A DNA stretch of 64,000 nucleotides from an uncultured cyanobacterium (GTDB lineage Bacteria; Cyanobacteriota; Cyanobacteriia; CAKZMO01), in contig CAVRCJ010000010.1 in assembly GCA_963719515.1 (NCBI GenBank), positions 544,001 through 608,000 on the forward strand, in the 5' to 3' direction. The first letter of the stretch is position 1, and each line of letters starts with the position of its first letter. Under the pieces are notes generated by a model. It was not told the DNA's origin and searched no databases. It saw only the letters and a list, made by a program, of their open reading frames with translations. This document shows, one piece after another, positions 44,726 through 58,899 of the stretch. The position numbers and the translations under genes are program-made.

Positions 44726-45136
44726 TCAGCTAGGCCCGACGCCTGGTTGATTCTCGACATAGGCTTTGACCTGCTCCAGGGTGACGCCGCCGGTTGAAGC
44801 GACAAAGTAAGCCCCAGACCAGAACACCCGTTTTCGATACGCTTTTGCAACACGCTCTTCAAACTCCTTACGAATCAATCTGCTCGACACGGTCTTCAGG
44901 TTATTTACCAGTTTGCTAAGCTGCACGTCCGGTGGATAGCTAATCAATAAGTGAACGTGGTCTGCTTCTCCGTTTATCTCGACAAGGTTGCTACTCCACT
45001 TCTCGCAGGTATCAGCAAAAATCTCGTAGAGACGCTCTTGAATTGGCTTGTCAATGATGTTAAGCCGGTATTTAGTTACAAGCACTAAGTGTATGTTCAA
45101 GCTGTAAATACAGCGATAGCCCTTGTTGTAGGTCAT
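44726..45136 (-). CDS. tnpA: IS200-family Y1 transposase TnpA
   Basis: HLVLVTKYR, DHVHLL, FWSGAYF, YVENQ. Confidence 0.95.
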   Translation of the reverse strand: MTYNKGYRCIYSLNIHLVLVTKYRLNIIDKPIQERLYEIFADTCEKWSSNLVEINGEADHVHLLISYPPDVQLSKLVNNLKTVSSRLIRKEFEERVAKAYRKRVFWSGAYFVASTGGVTLEQVKAYVENQPGVGPS

Positions 45137-45158
45137 GTCACTAAGCTATGATGATGAC

Positions 45159-46418
45159 ATGATTCTAGCCTACCAATACCGACTAAAGCCAACTGCTCAG
45201 CAGGCCGACACTATGGCCCTCTGGGGAGAGTTGCTGCGTCGGCATTGGAACTACGCTCTGGGGGAGCGGCTAGACGTGCTATCCCGATGGCGCTGCCAGA
45301 TTGATAGATGCAGCCTGCGCTCAGAGCCGATAGGCGAGATTGGCGGAAAGATTGACTATTACTCACAGGCTGCTGCCCTCAAAGAGACGAAACAGCTGTT
45401 CCCTGAGTACAAAGGCATTTACGCTGATTGCCAGCAACAAAACCTGATGCGCTTGGACAAAGCGTGGAAGCGCTGGATGTCGCCGGACAAAAATGGTAAG
45501 CGGGGCGGTAGGCCACGTTTTAAGAAGCGGGGCAACCTGTGCTCGTTTACCTACCCAAGGGTGAACTGCCCTAAGGCCGGCGCGTTTTTGAACGGCGACA
45601 TGCTGAAGCTGTCGAAGATTGGCGAAGTACAGGTCATCCTGCACCGACCAATTCCTGACGGCTTCAAATTGAAGCAGGCCACAATCTTGAACAAGGCCGA
45701 TGGTTGGTATGTCAGCTTGTCTCTTGAAGACGGGACGGTCCCAGAACCGTTGCCGGTCAGCGAGGTTGAATCCGTCGTTGGTATTGATGTGGGACTTGAA
45801 AAGTTCCTCACTACCTCTAATGGTGAAGCGGTAAGTATTCCGCAGTTTTATCGCAAAGCTCAAGAGCGTCTTGGCCGTCAGCAGCGCAAATTGGCCCGAA
45901 TGGAGAAGGGCTCTAAGAACCACCAGCGGCAGGCCAACAAGGTGGCGCGGCTGCACCTGCATGTAGGCCGCCAGCGCAAAGAGTTTCACTATCAGCTCTC
46001 GCATTGGCTTTGCGCCAACTACGACTTGATAGCGTTCGAGAACCTGAACATCAAGGGACTTGCCAGAACCCGGCTGGCTAAGTCGATCCTCGATGCGGCC
46101 TGGGGCCAATTCCTCAATATCCTGCAAGCGGTCGCGGTAAAACGCAGCAAACTGGCTATTGGCGTCAACCCCAACGGTACTAGCATTGAGTGTTCGGGCT
46201 GTGGTGAGCGCGTCGTCAAGACGCTGGGTGATAGGGTTCATGTCTGTGGGTGTGGGCTCAAGATGAACCGGGATTGGAATGCAGCAATCAACATATTGAA
46301 TAGGGCGGTCGGACAATCGCTCTCTGGCTGTGGAGGCTTATCCGTTGGGATGCCGTTGAACCAGCAACTCTCAATTGTGAATTTGGAAAGCCCCCGTCTA
46401 CAGCCCGTTAGGGTTTAG
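45159..46418 (+). CDS. tnpB: RNA-guided endonuclease TnpB
   Basis: YQYRLKPT HTH, GIDVGL, AFENL, CSGCG..CGCG, RDWNAAINI. Confidence 0.95.
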   Translation: MILAYQYRLKPTAQQADTMALWGELLRRHWNYALGERLDVLSRWRCQIDRCSLRSEPIGEIGGKIDYYSQAAALKETKQLFPEYKGIYADCQQQNLMRLDKAWKRWMSPDKNGKRGGRPRFKKRGNLCSFTYPRVNCPKAGAFLNGDMLKLSKIGEVQVILHRPIPDGFKLKQATILNKADGWYVSLSLEDGTVPEPLPVSEVESVVGIDVGLEKFLTTSNGEAVSIPQFYRKAQERLGRQQRKLARMEKGSKNHQRQANKVARLHLHVGRQRKEFHYQLSHWLCANYDLIAFENLNIKGLARTRLAKSILDAAWGQFLNILQAVAVKRSKLAIGVNPNGTSIECSGCGERVVKTLGDRVHVCGCGLKMNRDWNAAINILNRAVGQSLSGCGGLSVGMPLNQQLSIVNLESPRLQPVRV

Positions 46419-47050
46419 CGGGGGAGGATGTCACTTCTGATTAGCCTGCTGAGCATTGAGGTGGCGGTTCCGCTACTGTCGGTGCTGGGCGTTGTGCAGC
46501 AGAGCATTCTTTGGGGAGTTTACCGCCAGGCGTTCAACTGGCAAGCGATGATGCGGGTGACCGTCGCCTCGCTGGCGCTAGTTCCAGTTGGCGTCCTGCT
46601 GATCGACTACTGGCCTGAGCGTATCCTGCTAGCGGGCCTGGGTATTGTTCTGATTAGCTACGCGACCTATGAATTGGCCCAGCTTCAGCTCCCCAAGCTA
46701 GAGTCACCGTGCTGGGGCTACCTGTTTGGCGGAATTGCTGGCGTCTTATCGGGGGCATACAATATTGCAGGCCCGCCGGTCATTCTCTACGCCAGCTGTC
46801 AACGCTGGCAGCAGGATGAGTTTAAGAGCAACCTCCAGGGGTATTTTTTGATCAACGCGATTCTGCTTGTCTTTAGCCGAGGGCTACAGGGCCAGCTGAC
46901 GAGGGAGGTCTGGCTGCTTGGCCTTGTGGCGCTGCCCGCGATCGCGATCGGCAGCTTTGCGGGTAAGCGACTATCTGACCGGCTCAACCCACAGCGCTTT
47001 CGCCAAGCTGTTCTCGGTTTGCTGCTGGTGTTGGGCATTCGGCTGCTTAT

Positions 47051-52834: not shown

Positions 52835-53008
52835 ATGAAACTTCAATTTTTGGGTGTAGAGTACGTCCGCTCAAATGCTGATGCCCTCGATATGTCTATC
52901 GCAGGCCGCTACCGAGGTAAAGCCTGGCGGTCTGAGCCTTCTACTGGCCTTCAGCGCTCTGAAGTCACCCTCCACTTCTTGGGGCGGGCCTACCAATCAG
53001 AAGTTTAG
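52835..53008 (+). CDS. DUF4278-like small protein (57 aa; absent from the ORF track)
   Basis: MKLQFLGVEY...GRYRGKAW...LHFLGRAYQSEV*: three L/G-x-Y/F-R/L-G repeats typical of DUF4278. Confidence 0.75.
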   Translation: MKLQFLGVEYVRSNADALDMSIAGRYRGKAWRSEPSTGLQRSEVTLHFLGRAYQSEV

Positions 53009-53458
53009 CTAGTTCGTGACAGCCCCCGCGCTGTATGCGCAGCATCAGCGTCGGGATGTAAGCGAGCGAGTCGAGGTGCGCCCTTGACTGGATGCCGAAG
53101 GCGGCAATTAAGGGCAGCGCCGAGGCGAGCAAAGGGTACAATTGAACCAAGCTCAAACTACTTCATGGCGGCGGCCTGCTATCGTGACACAAACGTACAG
53201 CCCTTGGCTGGTGAACAGTGCAGACGGTAGAAAACGTAGCTGGAAATTGAATACTCGTCACTGTCTGGGGTTGGTCATTGCCTGGACATTAAACAAATCG
53301 CCTGTCGATGGGATCTAATCGGGGTTGCACGGCTTGCTGCGTAACTAGACAGGACCAGATGAAGCAGGATACCTTCTTGCGCGGCATCCATTAAATTGTG
53401 GTGCGTGAGCCAAGAAGCCCGCGCTCTATCTAAAAGATGAGCGTCGGGAGTATGTCAC
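53009..53458 (+). mobile_element. Non-autonomous IS200/IS605-derived mini-element (450 bp, no transposase)
   Basis: Follows TTTAG; both ends carry a CCCGCGCT...AGCGTCGGG hairpin; terminus AGTATGTCAC. Confidence 0.8.
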
Positions 53459-53562
53459 GATACGGGTGGCGGTGAGGCGCGGGTTTGAAAACTGGCCGCG
53501 ATCGCAGCCTAGGGCGGCGGCATTCATGTCATGCTTTAAGACACTGATTTTGTCCTCCTTTT

Positions 53563-54984
53563 ATGCCTTCTGCCGCCCCGCCTTCCACCGCCGCCAACGC
53601 GCCACTTTCCCTATCCACCAAGCTCGCCTACGGTGCGGGAGATATGGGGGCTGGCCTAACGGCTAACCTGGTAGTCTTCTCATTCCTGATTTTTCTGACC
53701 AACGTCGCCGGTCTCAGCCCAGCGTTAGCGGGCACGGTGCTGCTGGTGGGCAAAATTTGGGACAGCGTCAGCGACCCGATGGTAGGACTGTTGAGCGATC
53801 GCACCCGGTCTCGCTGGGGCCGTCGCCACGTGTGGATGCTGTTTGGCTCCATCCCGTTCGGCGTCAGCTTTATGCTCATGTGGATTGTGCCGGGGTTTGA
53901 GCAAACTTGGCTCAAGTTTGTCTACTACTTAGTGGTGTCTATCCTATTTTTCACCAGCTACACCGCCGTCAACCTGCCCTACGCCGCCCTCACTCCCGAA
54001 CTCACCCAAGACTACGACGAGCGCACAACCCTCAGCAGCTTTCGCCTCGCCTTCTCTCTGGGTGGTGCGGTGATGGGTCTGGCTTTGGGGGTAGTCTTGG
54101 ATCAATTCATCACCAGCCCCCAGCGCCAGTTTCAGCTGCTGGGCATCATCGGTGCGGTTGCTGCTGTCTTGCCGCTCTACTGGTGCATCTGGGGCACAAA
54201 GCACCGCGTTCAGCCCCAGGCGTCTAGCGCGTCAGCTGAGCTAGAGGCTGAGCCTGCAGCTGCAGTGGAACCGTTTTGGCAACAGCTGCCCATCGTCTTT
54301 AGCAACCGCCCTTTTCTCTACGTCATCGGCATCTATTTAACGTCGTGGCTGGCGCTGCAAATCACCGCGTCGATTATTCCCTTCTACGCCGTCAGCTGGA
54401 TTGGCCTAGAGTCTTACTTCTTAGTAGCGTTGGCGGTTCAGGGAACGGCGATTCCCATGCTGTTTCTCTGCAGCCTCATTAGCCGCCGCATCGGCAAGCG
54501 GGGACTCTACTTTATTGGAATGAGCAGCTGGATTGTGATTCAAATTGGCCTGATGTTTTTGCAACCGGGTCAGGTGGGGCTGCTCTATGGGCTGGCCGTC
54601 GCCGCTAGCTTTGGGGTAGCGACGGCCTACGTGGTGCCCTGGTCCATGCTGCCCGACGTCATTGAGCTAGACGAGCTCAAAACAGGCCAGCGCCGAGAGG
54701 GCGTCTTCTACTCGTTCATGACGCTGCTGCAAAAGGTGGGCCTCGCCGTCGGCATCTTTTTGGTGGGGCAGGCGCTGCAGCTAGCGGGGTTTATTCCGGC
54801 AACTCCAGGGGAACCCATTCCGGTACAGCCTGAATCGGCCTTGTTTGCCATCCGCGCCGCTATCGGACCGTTTCCAACCGTCTGCCTGATTCTGGGGCTA
54901 GTGCTGGTGTATTTTTACCCGCTGACGCGGGAAGTTCACGAAGAAATCATGCTCAAACTTCAAGAGCGTAAAAAGGCTAGCTGA
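53563..54984 (+). CDS. GPH-family (MelB-like) MFS sugar:cation symporter
   Basis: KLAYGAGD, WDSVSDPMVG.LSDRTRSRWGRR, GQRREG. Confidence 0.9.
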   Translation: MPSAAPPSTAANAPLSLSTKLAYGAGDMGAGLTANLVVFSFLIFLTNVAGLSPALAGTVLLVGKIWDSVSDPMVGLLSDRTRSRWGRRHVWMLFGSIPFGVSFMLMWIVPGFEQTWLKFVYYLVVSILFFTSYTAVNLPYAALTPELTQDYDERTTLSSFRLAFSLGGAVMGLALGVVLDQFITSPQRQFQLLGIIGAVAAVLPLYWCIWGTKHRVQPQASSASAELEAEPAAAVEPFWQQLPIVFSNRPFLYVIGIYLTSWLALQITASIIPFYAVSWIGLESYFLVALAVQGTAIPMLFLCSLISRRIGKRGLYFIGMSSWIVIQIGLMFLQPGQVGLLYGLAVAASFGVATAYVVPWSMLPDVIELDELKTGQRREGVFYSFMTLLQKVGLAVGIFLVGQALQLAGFIPATPGEPIPVQPESALFAIRAAIGPFPTVCLILGLVLVYFYPLTREVHEEIMLKLQERKKAS

Positions 54985-54996
54985 CAAGGTAGGCGC

Positions 54997-55716
54997 TTAC
55001 CGGGCGTAGCGCTGTCCCGGTTGACGTGGCCCCGCCTGACGCGGCGGATTCTGGCGTGATTGGACCTGGCGCGACGGGGGCTCCTCCCCATGCAGCTGCT
55101 GTCGCCCGTTGCGAATCACCCGCAGCATATCCGTCAGCTGATTCTCGACGTTTGCCAGCACCTGACCGGCATACTCATCGGCACCCCTTTGGATGTCGTC
55201 GCATTCGGCGATCGCCACTTGCTGCATTTGCTCAAGCTCTTCTTGAGCCTGCTGACGCCGCTGCTCAATCTCTCGCATCACGCCCTCTCTCATGGCGTCA
55301 CTCTCCTGCTGGATGCCTTGACGGACCTGAGCCGCCTCCATTTCGGCCTGACGCACGATGCCCGTTTGGTTAAGCATTTGAGCGGCCTGTTGCTCTGCCG
55401 CCGCCAGCATCTCCTGGATATACTGCTCGGCTTCAGCAATAATGGCCTCTTTTTGCTGAATCAATATTAAAGCCTGCTGAAACGCCGCGGGAAGCGATCG
55501 CTGCACCTCTTCTAGCTGGTCGAGCACCTCCTCCTCGTCAATGAGGGTATAGCGGCTCAGGGGAATGCGGACGCCTTCAAAAATGATGTCTTCTAGCTTC
55601 GAGATCTGCCGCTGAATATCAAGCGGATTAGAGTCTGGACTAACATCAATGGGGTTAGTGGACGATAGGGGTTCAGGGTGTGACACGGCTTGCGCATTGG
55701 GGGGACTAGAGAACAT
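54997..55716 (-). CDS. DivIVA-like coiled-coil protein (Cdv3-like)
   Basis: RIPLSRYTLIDEEEVLDQL, coiled coil, GADEYA; lies directly downstream of coaD. Confidence 0.75.
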   Translation of the reverse strand: MFSSPPNAQAVSHPEPLSSTNPIDVSPDSNPLDIQRQISKLEDIIFEGVRIPLSRYTLIDEEEVLDQLEEVQRSLPAAFQQALILIQQKEAIIAEAEQYIQEMLAAAEQQAAQMLNQTGIVRQAEMEAAQVRQGIQQESDAMREGVMREIEQRRQQAQEELEQMQQVAIAECDDIQRGADEYAGQVLANVENQLTDMLRVIRNGRQQLHGEEPPSRQVQSRQNPPRQAGPRQPGQRYAR

Positions 55717-55733
55717 ACGGTTCGGTAGACGAG

Positions 55734-56231
55734 TCAGAGCTTAGGCACTGTTGAGGTATAGCGCTGGCTTAGGGCTGATGCAACGGGGGCAGGCACCAGG
55801 TGATCGACAGGCCCTCCAAATTTTGCCACTTCCTTGACTACAGAACTGCTGAGGAAGCTATATTCGTTCGAAGTTGCCAGAAAAACGGTCTCAATGTGAC
55901 TGGACAGAGTTTTGTTGGTGTGGGCCATCTGCAGCTCCATCTCAAAGTCTGACACAGCGCGTAACCCTCTGAGGATCACCTGAGCCTGCCGCGCTTTGAC
56001 GTAGGCCACAGTCAAGCCGCTGAAGCTATCCACCTCTACATTGGCCAAATCGGCGGTAGAGAGCTCTATCTGCTCAAGCCGCTGCTGCACGGTAAACAGA
56101 GGCGTTTTGCTGGGATTTGTGAGGACGGCCACAACAACGTGCTCGTAAATGCGGCTAGCGCGCTCAACGATATCGAGATGCCCCAGCGTAATTGGGTCGA
56201 AGCTGCCTGGGTAGACGGCAATCACAGGCAA
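55734..56231 (-). CDS. coaD: Pantetheine-phosphate adenylyltransferase
   Basis: [28 protein letters not shown]. Confidence 0.97.
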
Positions 56232-56473
56232 GAATTAACGTTGACGATATACAGCAGTATAGGGGGCGCTGAGGCGATTATACTAGGCCACCCCTTGCAG
56301 ATTTTGCGGATTCTTTATGGGGACATCAAGAGCAGATCGCTGGGTGAGGCGGCTCAAAGGCAGTGTCCTGGTTTGCCTTCAACCTCTATGCTCTACATTT
56401 ATCTCTTCTGCAAACCTTGGCTTCGTGAGCCTTGTCGCCATCGGGGCGCAGCGCCTAAATCACCCCAGAAAGT

Positions 56474-56506
56474 AAAAGCCCCCTAAGCCATAATGGCCCA
56501 AGGGCT
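56474..56506 (-). terminator. Probable intrinsic terminator downstream of gltA
   Basis: Minus strand agcccttgggccattatggcttagggggctttt. Confidence 0.55.
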
Positions 56507-56651
56507 GGAGTTCCTGAAAATCGTCACTGAACATATAGTGGCAAGTTCTTCAATTAGCCGCAAGGGGGTTTCACCCCTCACTCTACGATATTCATCCAAA
56601 ACGAAACTTCATCAAGCAGTGATGTGCGTCCTGTCCCTCCGGTGGGCGTGG

Positions 56652-57866
56652 TCACAGGGGGCCTGAGCTCATGGCTTGAGCTGACGGTAGCTGAGCTTCG
56701 ACTAGCGCCTTGTGCTCTAGCGTTAACGCCCGGTCACCGATGGGAATGTAGGGGAGGCCATGCTCGCCGGTGTAAATCTGCGTGGGACGGAAAATCCGAT
56801 TTTCTGCAAGCTGGTCTTTCCAATGAGCCAGCCAGCCGGCTACGCGGGCGATCGCAAACACTGGGGTAAACAGATCAGACGGAATGCCGAGACGGCGGTA
56901 GACCAGTCCCGAGTAGAAGTCGACATTGGGGTAAATGCCTTTCCCTCCTAGCTTTTCTTCAATCACCCGCTCTAGCTCAACGGCAATCTCATAATACTTG
57001 TCGCGCCCGAACTGATCGAATAGCTTTTCAACCAGCTCCTGCAAGATGATGGCGCGCGGGTCTTTCACCTTATAGACGCGGTGGCCAAAACCCATAATCT
57101 TAGACCGCCGCTGCAGACAGTTCTCGACGTAGGGCTTGACGTTCTCCACCTCTCCAATCTCTTCAAGCATCGTCAACACCTCCTCATTTGCCCCGCCGTG
57201 GAGCGGCCCCGCTAGGGTCCCCACCGCAGAAGCCACCACCGCGTAGGGGTCAGTGAGGGTCGAGGCCGTCACCATCGCTGAGAATGTGGAGGCGTTGACG
57301 GTGTGCTCGGCGTGAAGGGTGAGACAGACGTCGAAAATGTGGGCCGCTAGGGGATCGGGCTCCTGCTCGTTGAGCATGTAGAGAAAGTTGGCTGAGTAGT
57401 CTAAATCGTCGCGGGGCTGCACGGGGTCATTGCCGCGGCGCATCAGCTGAAACGCCGCCACCATTGTAGGAATCTTGGCCAGTAACCGTACGACAGCCGC
57501 CCGAATGTAAGCCGGGTCATCCAGCGCTCGCCGAGAATAAAACAGCCCTAGCGCCGCGGCACAGGACTGCAGAGCATCCATGGGATGACCGGATTCGGGG
57601 AAGCACTTCATCATGTCGCGGATGCGATACTTGAGCCGCCGGTGGTAGCGAATTTCGTGCTCAAAGTCCGCTAGCTCTTGCTCAGTGGGCAAATGGCCCC
57701 AGATTAAAAGAAACGCGGTTTCGATGAAGCTGCTCTCTGTCGCCAAACTCTCGATGCTGATGCCGCGATATTCTAGGATTCCGCGTTGTCCATCCACAAA
57801 GCTGATGCCAGACTGTTTGGCGGGGATACCTTCTAAACCGGGGCGATATTCGTATGCAGCGGACAT
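56652..57866 (-). CDS. gltA: Citrate synthase
   Basis: LHAEH, GPLHGGANE, GFGHRVYK, YPNVDFYSG. Confidence 0.97.
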   Translation of the reverse strand: MSAAYEYRPGLEGIPAKQSGISFVDGQRGILEYRGISIESLATESSFIETAFLLIWGHLPTEQELADFEHEIRYHRRLKYRIRDMMKCFPESGHPMDALQSCAAALGLFYSRRALDDPAYIRAAVVRLLAKIPTMVAAFQLMRRGNDPVQPRDDLDYSANFLYMLNEQEPDPLAAHIFDVCLTLHAEHTVNASTFSAMVTASTLTDPYAVVASAVGTLAGPLHGGANEEVLTMLEEIGEVENVKPYVENCLQRRSKIMGFGHRVYKVKDPRAIILQELVEKLFDQFGRDKYYEIAVELERVIEEKLGGKGIYPNVDFYSGLVYRRLGIPSDLFTPVFAIARVAGWLAHWKDQLAENRIFRPTQIYTGEHGLPYIPIGDRALTLEHKALVEAQLPSAQAMSSGPL

Positions 57867-58024
57867 AGTGATGTGCTTAGAGCGCCAGTGTACAGTTATT
57901 TAGAATTAAGCTTGACACATTTCTAGTCTCTCGGAACTGTTAATGGTGGTTTTTTGATATTTTTTGGGGGTCCGTCGAACGGCAGCAGCGCTACTTTACT
58001 GTGGAATTCGCTATGGGGACCTGA

Positions 58025-58899
58025 CTAAAGCAGCAGACGCGGTGGCGTCAACCAAAACAAAAGACTTTGTCCCTCGGGAGACCCAACGTCGGGTAAGTCC
58101 AGCCGTGACATCCTCCCGACGCTGACAGCAAGCTGTACAGCGCGGGCTTCCTCAGTGACTCCCAGCTATTGCCGAGACATATCCTGAGATAGGTTTATAC
58201 TCCGCCTGATGCCCCACGGCAGAGTTTTGAATTTTCATCTCCGCGAGGGAGGATACGCACTATGTGTCGCAGATACATTTGCAAACTGAGGAACGGGTGA
58301 CTTGCAGCTTTCGCCTACGGGCCCGTCACACTCTTTGCGGGGTGTATCACCTTGCTATCTCTATCATACCAACTGCTAGCCTCAGCGCTGAGCGCACTAT
58401 CCGCTGTGCATCATTTTGCGGGCGCACTTCGGCTAGCGCGACTCTCATCCCGACGCTCACCCTGACGGGTAGAGCGCGGGGCTTCCTGTCTAGTAGCTAA
58501 AACGCTCGCCTTTTTTACCTCGAGGCAACCTTTGGCCTCTCCCCACAGCAGCCGTTCAGCCCATTGCCCCAGGTCCGGCTGGTGCCCCACAATGGCTAGG
58601 GCCTCTCCGGACCACTGGTCTAGCCACGATAGCCACTCCTGAAAGTCCCCATCCGGCGCGAGGTGATTCGAGACCGCCAGGCGATCGCCCACCCCCGCCT
58701 CCAGCAAAATCTCAGCGGTCTGCTGAGCCCTTACTAAAGGGCTGGTCAAGATCAGCGCGACGTGAATCCTCTCCGCTAGCTGCCCGGCCACCTGGCGGGT
58801 ACGCTGCCGGCCTTTTCCCGTTAGGGGGCGATCGCGATCGCTTTTATAGGTGCCATGCTCGGCGGCGATGCCGTGGCGGATGATATAGAGGGTGGTCAC
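58025..58899 (-). pseudogene. sixA: Phosphohistidine phosphatase SixA interrupted by a mini-IS
   Basis: RHG, SPLVRA, VGHQP; removing 58105-58496 gives KKASVLG-LDLPDVGSPEGQSLLFWLTPPRLLL* in frame. Confidence 0.88.
58105..58496 (-). mobile_element. Non-autonomous IS200/IS605-derived mini-element (392 bp) inside sixA
   Basis: Minus strand TTTAG|CTACTAG..., CCCGCGCT...AGCGTCGGG hairpins at both ends, terminus GGATGTCAC; boundaries fixed by the restored sixA frame. Confidence 0.9.

Follow-up and report, generated by a model that had tools for sequence, protein, structure and literature searches.

Multi-copy gene-less IS200/IS605 elements with predicted omegaRNA scaffolds in an uncultured cyanobacterium

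How can a transposable element without any gene of its own multiply in a genome and hold its place there? The question is raised by two short elements, A and B, in a 64,000-nucleotide (nt) stretch of an uncultured cyanobacterium (assembly GCA_963719515.1, contig CAVRCJ010000010.1, positions 544,001 to 608,000; hereafter the window). A first-pass annotation had proposed that both are protein-free IS200/IS605 mini-elements moved by TnpA in trans, and candidate stand-alone omegaRNA (guide) cassettes. Following up this proposal, we consider it probable that both elements are gene-less, multi-copy members of the IS200/IS605 group, i.e. palindrome-associated transposable elements (PATEs), that are moved by TnpA in trans and make, from their own promoters, guide RNAs with which a resident TnpB, loaded in trans, cuts the TTTAG site emptied by excision. 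This reading draws on the number of copies, their ends and target motif, insertion without a scar, intact helper genes with matching ends, scaffold homology with covariation, and a conserved extended -10 box.

Copies, target sites and helper genes

Element A occurs in 18 copies in this genome (5.28 Mb in 21 contigs; 16 copies from an end-pairing script plus two added from blast) and B in 53, a total of 71 that is far above chance, with mean identities to the family majority of 99.2% (A) and 99.4% (B). The boundaries and lengths (450 and 392 nt) first assigned to the elements, as well as their TTTAG flanks, TGTCAC ends, end hairpins, shared blocks and guide flanks, were all confirmed (Table 1). 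The copy numbers also dispose of the concern that each element might be single-copy. The CTA start given for both is present in the two window copies and not in 22 of the 53 B copies, which begin with CGA. Copies of A follow TTTAG (12/18), xTTAG (5/18) or TCTAG (1/18), and copies of B follow TTTAG (47/53) or GTTAG/CTTAG (6/53). Both families have near-terminal palindromes related to those of IS605-type elements, have no terminal inverted repeats, and are inserted after their fixed short motif without target duplication.

Table 1. Features of elements A and B, in window positions, and loci of related elements.
Feature	Position	Strand	Remark
Element A	53009..53458	+	450 nt; one of 18 genome copies
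TTTAG target motif of A	53004..53008	+	TAG is the stop codon of the 57-aa DUF4278-like ORF 52835-53008
A left-end hairpin	53025..53055	+	same left end on full-length tnpB elements with TTTAG targets
A 5' hairpin module	53064..53131	+	adjoins left end, upstream of -10 box; homologous to that of B
Predicted -10 box of A, TACAAT	53137..53142	+	A family lacks the TG extension
A front domain	53143..53261	+	conserved hairpin core 53178-53230 with 7x7 internal loop
A omegaRNA scaffold	53262..53458	+	first hairpin 53262-53288, right-end hairpin 53418-53448
A pseudoknot	53274-53278 with 53452-53456	+	within omegaRNA scaffold
Predicted 16-nt guide of window A copy	53459..53474	+	flank after TCAC; length by analogy to ISDra2
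Element B	58105..58496	-	392 nt; one of 53 genome copies
TTTAG target motif of B	58497..58501	-	within sixA reading frame
B left-end hairpin	58449..58480	-	common to 1483-nt tnpB and 1.8-kb tnpA+tnpB elements
B 5' hairpin module	58375..58439	-	
Predicted extended -10 box of B, TG-N-TATGAT	58363..58368	-	
B front domain	58226..58362	-	found in genus only; structure compatible, predicted
B omegaRNA scaffold	58105..58225	-	first hairpin 58225-58199, right-end hairpin 58146-58115
Predicted 16-nt guide of window B copy	58089..58104	-	sixA coding sequence
sixA (histidine phosphatase) interrupted by B	58025..58899	-	last 26 codons at 58104-58025
Minor family loci (G000)	C10:332124-332545, C3:566940-567363, C1:7104-7546, C4:101934-102372, C6:288133-288390, C7:179715-180070, C4:97976-98355		
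Loci of further front-domain types	L154, L155, L163, L168; L162, L172, L176, L179, L174; L160; L095; L096; L097; L074		

Both window sites are empty in four of four congeners. The B junction aligns with these without gap or duplication, and excision of B in silico yields a 160-amino-acid SixA whose C-terminus matches those of the four congeners; the flanks of A are too divergent for the junction to be read base by base. The insertion pattern is the scarless pattern of TnpA. We note that B cuts 26 codons off sixA upstream of the citrate synthase gene (gltA, 56652-57866), that the predicted B promoter faces gltA, and that some 30 nt beyond the right end of B there is a terminator-like stem (58076-58058). 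A second B copy interrupts a tnpB gene from a different family (G000 C6:427516-429072), with the joint in frame. At A, the open reading frame (ORF) that ends in the target motif was assigned to DUF4278 with a Pfam E-value of 5e-5, slightly short of the cut-off. In 16/71 copies (117/1000 control sites) the TAG of the target closes an open frame of at least 50 codons, and insertions at such a TAG, as at A, leave the gene intact.

The interiors encode no recognizable protein, as had been noted at the outset: no sense frame matches a TnpB profile (best E-value 2.6), and the longest ORF, of 77 codons, is antisense in B. The ends of three 1.8-kb tnpA+tnpB elements, of sixteen 1483-nt tnpB elements and of one 1398-nt tnpB family carry these same hairpins. 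Three intact copies of tnpA, with HUH and Tyr motifs, are found in elements with B-type ends; among the loci listed, 17 of 20 tnpB1 and 6 of 12 tnpB3 genes are full-length, and two full-length tnpB3 loci carry the left end of A and a TTTAG target. A and B are likely moved by TnpA made elsewhere in the genome, and with TnpA-type ends, many copies, a structurally constrained scaffold and a conserved extended -10 box they are mobile units, as first proposed, rather than single dead remnants. A separate IS605 element also lies in the window (44729-46435), with divergent tnpA and tnpB genes, a TnpB 48% identical to TnpB1, and a TGTCAC end. Searches of plasmids by blastn gave no match for B and one 32-nt end match for A.

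The omegaRNA scaffolds and the predicted promoter

Both elements are laid out as left end, 65-70-nt hairpin module, -10 box, front domain, omegaRNA scaffold and right end. Their interiors had been described as dissimilar; this is true of the front domains, which are unrelated (in local alignment 150 of 200 shuffles scored as high), but the interior is not one unit, consisting as it does of a front domain and a tnpB-derived scaffold. The scaffolds (197 nt in A, 121 nt in B) come from two different TnpB clades. For A, the last 197 nt match a profile of tnpB genes of the other clade (nhmmer E-value 3.7e-7), starting at the first hairpin; this clade was reached through a genome-wide pattern scan with 19 loci, including 11 with tnpB sequence, one gene-less element, four short 5'-truncated tails, two chance matches and one unclassed locus. 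For B, homology to a DNA profile built on tnpB1-clade genes of other genomes covers the last 139 nt (E-value 1e-12) and starts about 18 nt ahead of the first hairpin, and the last 128 nt are 75% identical to the 3' end of the resident tnpB1. Given its homology to tnpB 3' ends, the 3' part is not the new RNA class of the earlier idea, which may apply solely to the front domain of A. According to Rfam, including its HEARO-type models, there is no match at E<=5 within A or B, nor in 8 related loci. Just to the right of A (53462-53598, minus strand) a weak match to C4 antisense RNA (E-value 1.6; 21 bits against a cut-off of 45) lies over a GC-rich hairpin.

The base pairs of these scaffolds are kept. 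In the B-type alignment (12 tnpB ends and two mini-elements; structure set from the alignment and the ISDra2 pseudoknot, and most of the signal from the tnpB genes), 95.9% of cells are paired and 12/30 pairs show double-sided changes, a number reached by 0/500 shuffles; slid controls have 36-47% of cells paired. B itself keeps 30/30 pairs, with double-sided changes relative to the resident tnpB1 at four of six first-hairpin pairs. The five ORF-less A-type families taken alone (mutually 69-85% identical) have 95.2% of cells paired and double-sided changes at 7/46 pairs (0/500 shuffles); three of the seven are in the right-end hairpin, which TnpA also needs, and four lie outside it. The pseudoknot stands to the right end in the ISDra2 register (-3C paired), and on the sense strand G-U pairs outnumber A-C mismatches (36:6 and 32:6). 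It had been pointed out that the interiors might be decayed tnpB sequence without covariation; the scaffolds do derive from tnpB, but their pairs covary. We take these covariation results as strong hints and not as probabilities.

TnpB omegaRNAs normally derive from the tnpB mRNA's 3' end, so a gene-less copy needs a promoter of its own, as predicted here. A TAnnnT box with varied inner bases is present in 21/21 element variants, preceded by a TG extension in 17/21, and sits 6-7 nt past the 5' module in 9/9 (the frequency of TAnnnT in the genome is 0.8% per position). The same box is found 5-8 nt ahead of the start codon in 24/43 tnpB genes, which makes it probable that the promoter of the elements was inherited from tnpB. 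The hexamers TACAAT and TATGAT had been placed at exactly nt 129 of each element, and this holds for the window copies; in 16/18 A copies the box is at nt 128, and an extra C, carried by 2/18 copies including that of the window, shifts it to nt 129. The equal spacing in A and B reflects their shared homologous 5' module, not convergence.

This 5' module shows double-sided changes at 11/22 pairs among 11 sequences (0/500 shuffles reach it). A strict pattern scan, of low sensitivity, found it in 0/400 other genomes and missed homologs that covariance models later recovered in 9/149 other genomes from five families. No tnpA or tnpB match was found at 22 fetched 5'-module loci, and loci of sufficient length have the same layout ending in a scaffold, except one that runs into other sequence (L170). 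That the module marks gene-less elements only was considered and rejected, as it is also present at the left end of a tnpB element (L133, the one case among the tnpB loci searched). The module is an inherited part of the left end upstream of the -10 box, and may act as DNA or as RNA.

Public RNA data from relatives give no support either way on transcription. Across three runs, 6% of the words of B are present. At 80% likeness these runs gave assembled contigs only. In two runs with identical results, one contig of 157 nt covers A 53265-53420 and another of 180 nt falls in the B interior, and the third gave a contig over B 58314-58105 that extends 26 nt beyond the right end. These are contigs of relatives, and one takes in the left end together with 181 nt of foreign flank, which makes DNA or read-through a possible source.

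Front domains and other gene-less families

The front domains (117 nt in A, 137 nt in B) differ in distribution, and folded singly they are not more stable than shuffles. The core of the A front domain consists of a bulged stem, a CAC/GUG helix, a near-invariant 7x7 internal loop (AAACGUA/GUGAACA) and a variable hairpin. Among seven core sequences, two of them near-identical, 99% of cells are paired and double-sided changes occur at 5/14 pairs. There are 21 strong matches in this genome, all inside elements. A covariance-model search of 149 genomes added two copies, each in a gene-less element and with a scaffold of another kind; in both the loop is kept and the flanking pairs are swapped. The scaffolds joined to the core at L157, L181 and L182 are visibly different. 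Counting the copies of family f10 and a metagenome relative at four sites, the core is known from four cyanobacterial families. The metagenome pattern search returned 13 loci, of which 4 are A-like elements and 9 chance matches.

The core was not found in the 26 tnpB loci and other mini-element families searched, nor, by model search, alone or ahead of host genes; it has no match in viral contigs, and the A front motif is unmatched to any RNA family described in Rfam. Compared with the hairpin ribozyme, loop E and K-turn motifs, it fitted none. A blastn search of A against 16 genomes of the family gave end matches only, with a sensitivity low enough to miss homologs that covariance models later found. 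Homologs of the B front domain were found in two congeners only (86-93% identity), whose changes are fully compatible with its predicted fold, yet not above the shuffle control (168/500). An idea formed by eye, that B and M4 share one front-domain fold, was not reproduced by alignment folding, and the two sequences are weakly similar (4/200 shuffles).

Further gene-less families accompany A and B: M4 (four copies), M6 (two), M7, M8, one truncated element and two with other ends. M4 and M6 combine the scaffold type of A with TTTAA targets, no 5' module and another front domain. One front-domain type precedes two different scaffolds (L176, L174; by eye), which suggests that parts of the elements are shuffled. 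At least six further front-domain types are found in gene-less elements of other cyanobacteria, several of them richly base-paired by eye. Another gene-less family with promoter and omegaRNA has different ends (G000 C14:161967, C15:131198, C20:68491, C3:471839, C5:166296); its front part resembles the 5' half of the A core by eye, and the model gave it no score. In two Coleofasciculaceae genomes, loci L077, L079, L080 and L091 (~1570-1800) are 3' tails of tnpB that begin 20-50 nt upstream of the scaffold and show neither a left end nor a promoter; they are possibly one-ended insertions of the omegaRNA region. The front domain is presumably a 5' part of the same RNA as the scaffold; that of A would be a constrained part, most likely a protein-binding or stability element.

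Explanations, precedents and meaning

In the explanation we prefer, TnpA would move the elements in trans, and the inherited promoter would drive a transcript from about 7 nt past the -10 box through the right end into the flank. TnpB would trim the 5' end of this RNA and load it, the partner being the tnpB1 family for B and, less certainly, the tnpB3 family for A. The flank-derived guide would direct cleavage of the joint of TTTAG and flank left at the donor after excision, and repair from a filled copy of the chromosome would restore the element and keep it in place. All steps beyond mobility and structure (transcription, loading, cleavage and repair) are predictions.

Several results weigh against this explanation. 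A strict sigma-70 scan found no -35/-10 pair at the A or B site, and the hexamer was selected by eye in 14 of the 21 variants and by a fixed rule in 7. The scaffold of A is only 58% identical to the resident tnpB3 end and has a different pseudoknot sequence, which leaves its cognate TnpB uncertain. The shuffle control can be beaten by relatedness alone, and the structures were defined from the same alignments. Finally, no guide (0/71) has a match preceded by TTTAG in the assembly; this gives no support, and it is expected for filled sites.

An unlikely alternative is that the elements are passive hitchhikers, in which only the TnpA ends matter and the scaffold and promoter, inherited from tnpB parents, are no longer used. 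It would fit the description of PATEs as fused, degenerate ends (PMC3119063) and the weak folding of the predicted transcripts taken singly (z -1.7 and -1.3 relative to shuffles). It would also fit the front domains of A and M7, which are weakly colinear with tnpB 5' coding DNA in pairwise comparison (0/100 shuffles each). This likeness, however, is unconfirmed by profile searches, which found nothing in both directions; for M8, C6p and L061, 14, 8 and 6 of 100 shuffles scored as high, and B and the other families show none. Passive ends would also leave unexplained why pairs are kept among diverged ORF-less families, and why the scaffold of A is better conserved relative to M7 and M8 (77-80% identity) than the front domain (60-61%). 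In six ORF-less families (A, M4, M6, C7el, C4el, L074) the tnpB homology starts at one boundary, between profile positions 1211 and 1218, where the first omegaRNA hairpin has its base, though these families may share ancestors and the boundary does not represent six independent events.

We regard as quite unlikely that the elements are decoys, whose folded RNA would titrate TnpB (or TnpA, via the right-end hairpin) or guide binding without cutting, and so damp the full-length elements. The guide position and pseudoknot are intact and the scaffold of B is close to that of a nuclease family that is itself intact and shares the target motif; moreover, selfish benefit would explain the conservation more directly. 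A decoy would nevertheless agree with the 71 copies facing about 23 full-length tnpB1/tnpB3 genes, with the scaffold of A being unlike every resident tnpB end examined, and with the competition for TnpA by PATE RNAs suggested in PMC4615843.

It is improbable that the RNA doing the work is the front domain itself (as a sensor, a site for protein binding or a processing element), with the element as its vehicle. The invariance of the A core loop across four families and differing scaffolds, with swapped flanking pairs, is what one would expect of such an RNA, but the core was found only in gene-less elements with a scaffold behind it, B and other families have different front domains, and in the ISDra2 experiments described in PMC10097598 cleavage does not require the RNA that lies 5' of the scaffold. 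We give almost no credence to IStron-like self-splicing out of host mRNAs, for which B in sense orientation in sixA and the copy inside a tnpB gene could speak, since Rfam gave no group I intron or ribozyme match and the copies avoid long reading frames (6/71 compared with 451/1000 random TTTAG sites; 16/71 compared with 656/1000 under a looser rule), which argues against it.

Guide-bearing PATEs acting through TnpB in trans remain our preferred explanation, and the kind of element is already known, which limits the surprise. Trans activity of stand-alone omegaRNAs was reportedly demonstrated by Altae-Tran et al. in 2021 with IscB. Stand-alone omegaRNAs mobilised without effector or transposase, and working in trans with compatible effectors, are described in PMC10691335, which summarises that 2021 study, and the elements here likewise contain neither. 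In Geobacillus stearothermophilus, PATEs often encode omegaRNAs that would need TnpB in trans (Meers et al., PMC10055086), so that omegaRNA-bearing PATEs acting in trans have already been proposed in print; these too are gene-less, belong to IS200/IS605 and have ends like those of tnpA/tnpB elements. Going beyond them as described in that paper, the elements here comprise 71 near-identical copies in two families plus minor families, and have covariation, an extended -10 box and distinct front domains. The Haloquadratum PATEs (PMC3119063) share the near-terminal palindromes, absence of terminal inverted repeats and of target duplication, and homogeneous high-copy families, and the Halobacterium PATE RNA VNG_R0052 is expressed (PMC4615843); those two accounts regard PATEs as deletion products or as ends fused to each other, and propose no guide function for them.

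The predicted RNAs resemble the ISDra2 right-end element RNA (reRNA), or omegaRNA, in that the tnpB 3' end together with the right end supplies the scaffold, a pseudoknot reaches the last bases, the flank would serve as a guide of about 16 nt and the transposon-associated motif (TAM) would equal the TnpA target (PMC8612924; PMC10097598). The ISDra2 omegaRNA, however, lies in cis with tnpB, it can do without its 5' 115 nt (PMC10097598), and no conserved front domain is known there. TnpB has been reported to process the 5' end of its RNA (PMC10278001), in-trans loading works for another TnpB (10.1101/2023.11.20.567912), and cleavage after excision followed by repair is the model set out in PMC10055086 and PMC8612924. 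Searches of the open-access literature turned up neither a conserved front domain nor elements like these in cyanobacteria, which is limited evidence. Less ordinary are the copy number, the covariation among gene-less families and the unexplained front motif of A.

A more speculative possibility, which we raise tentatively, is that the gene-less omegaRNA elements of cyanobacteria form an evolving lineage of mobile non-coding RNA genes of their own, and not fresh local deletions of tnpB. They would swap ends, modules, front domains and scaffolds and outnumber their helpers by about 3:1, and a 5' motif would recruit a protein or control processing, such that a guide without tnpB mRNA captures TnpB in trans. 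The usual source of a TnpB guide is the nuclease's own mRNA, which it trims, and the front motif of A is a candidate for how a promoter-driven guide competes for the protein, which could inform guide design for TnpB editors. The system would also put directly to the test the idea, proposed but little tested, that IS200/IS605 elements without genes retain their sites via TnpB in trans. If the RNAs do load TnpB, one nuclease pool in this cyanobacterium would serve more than 70 naturally programmed guides.

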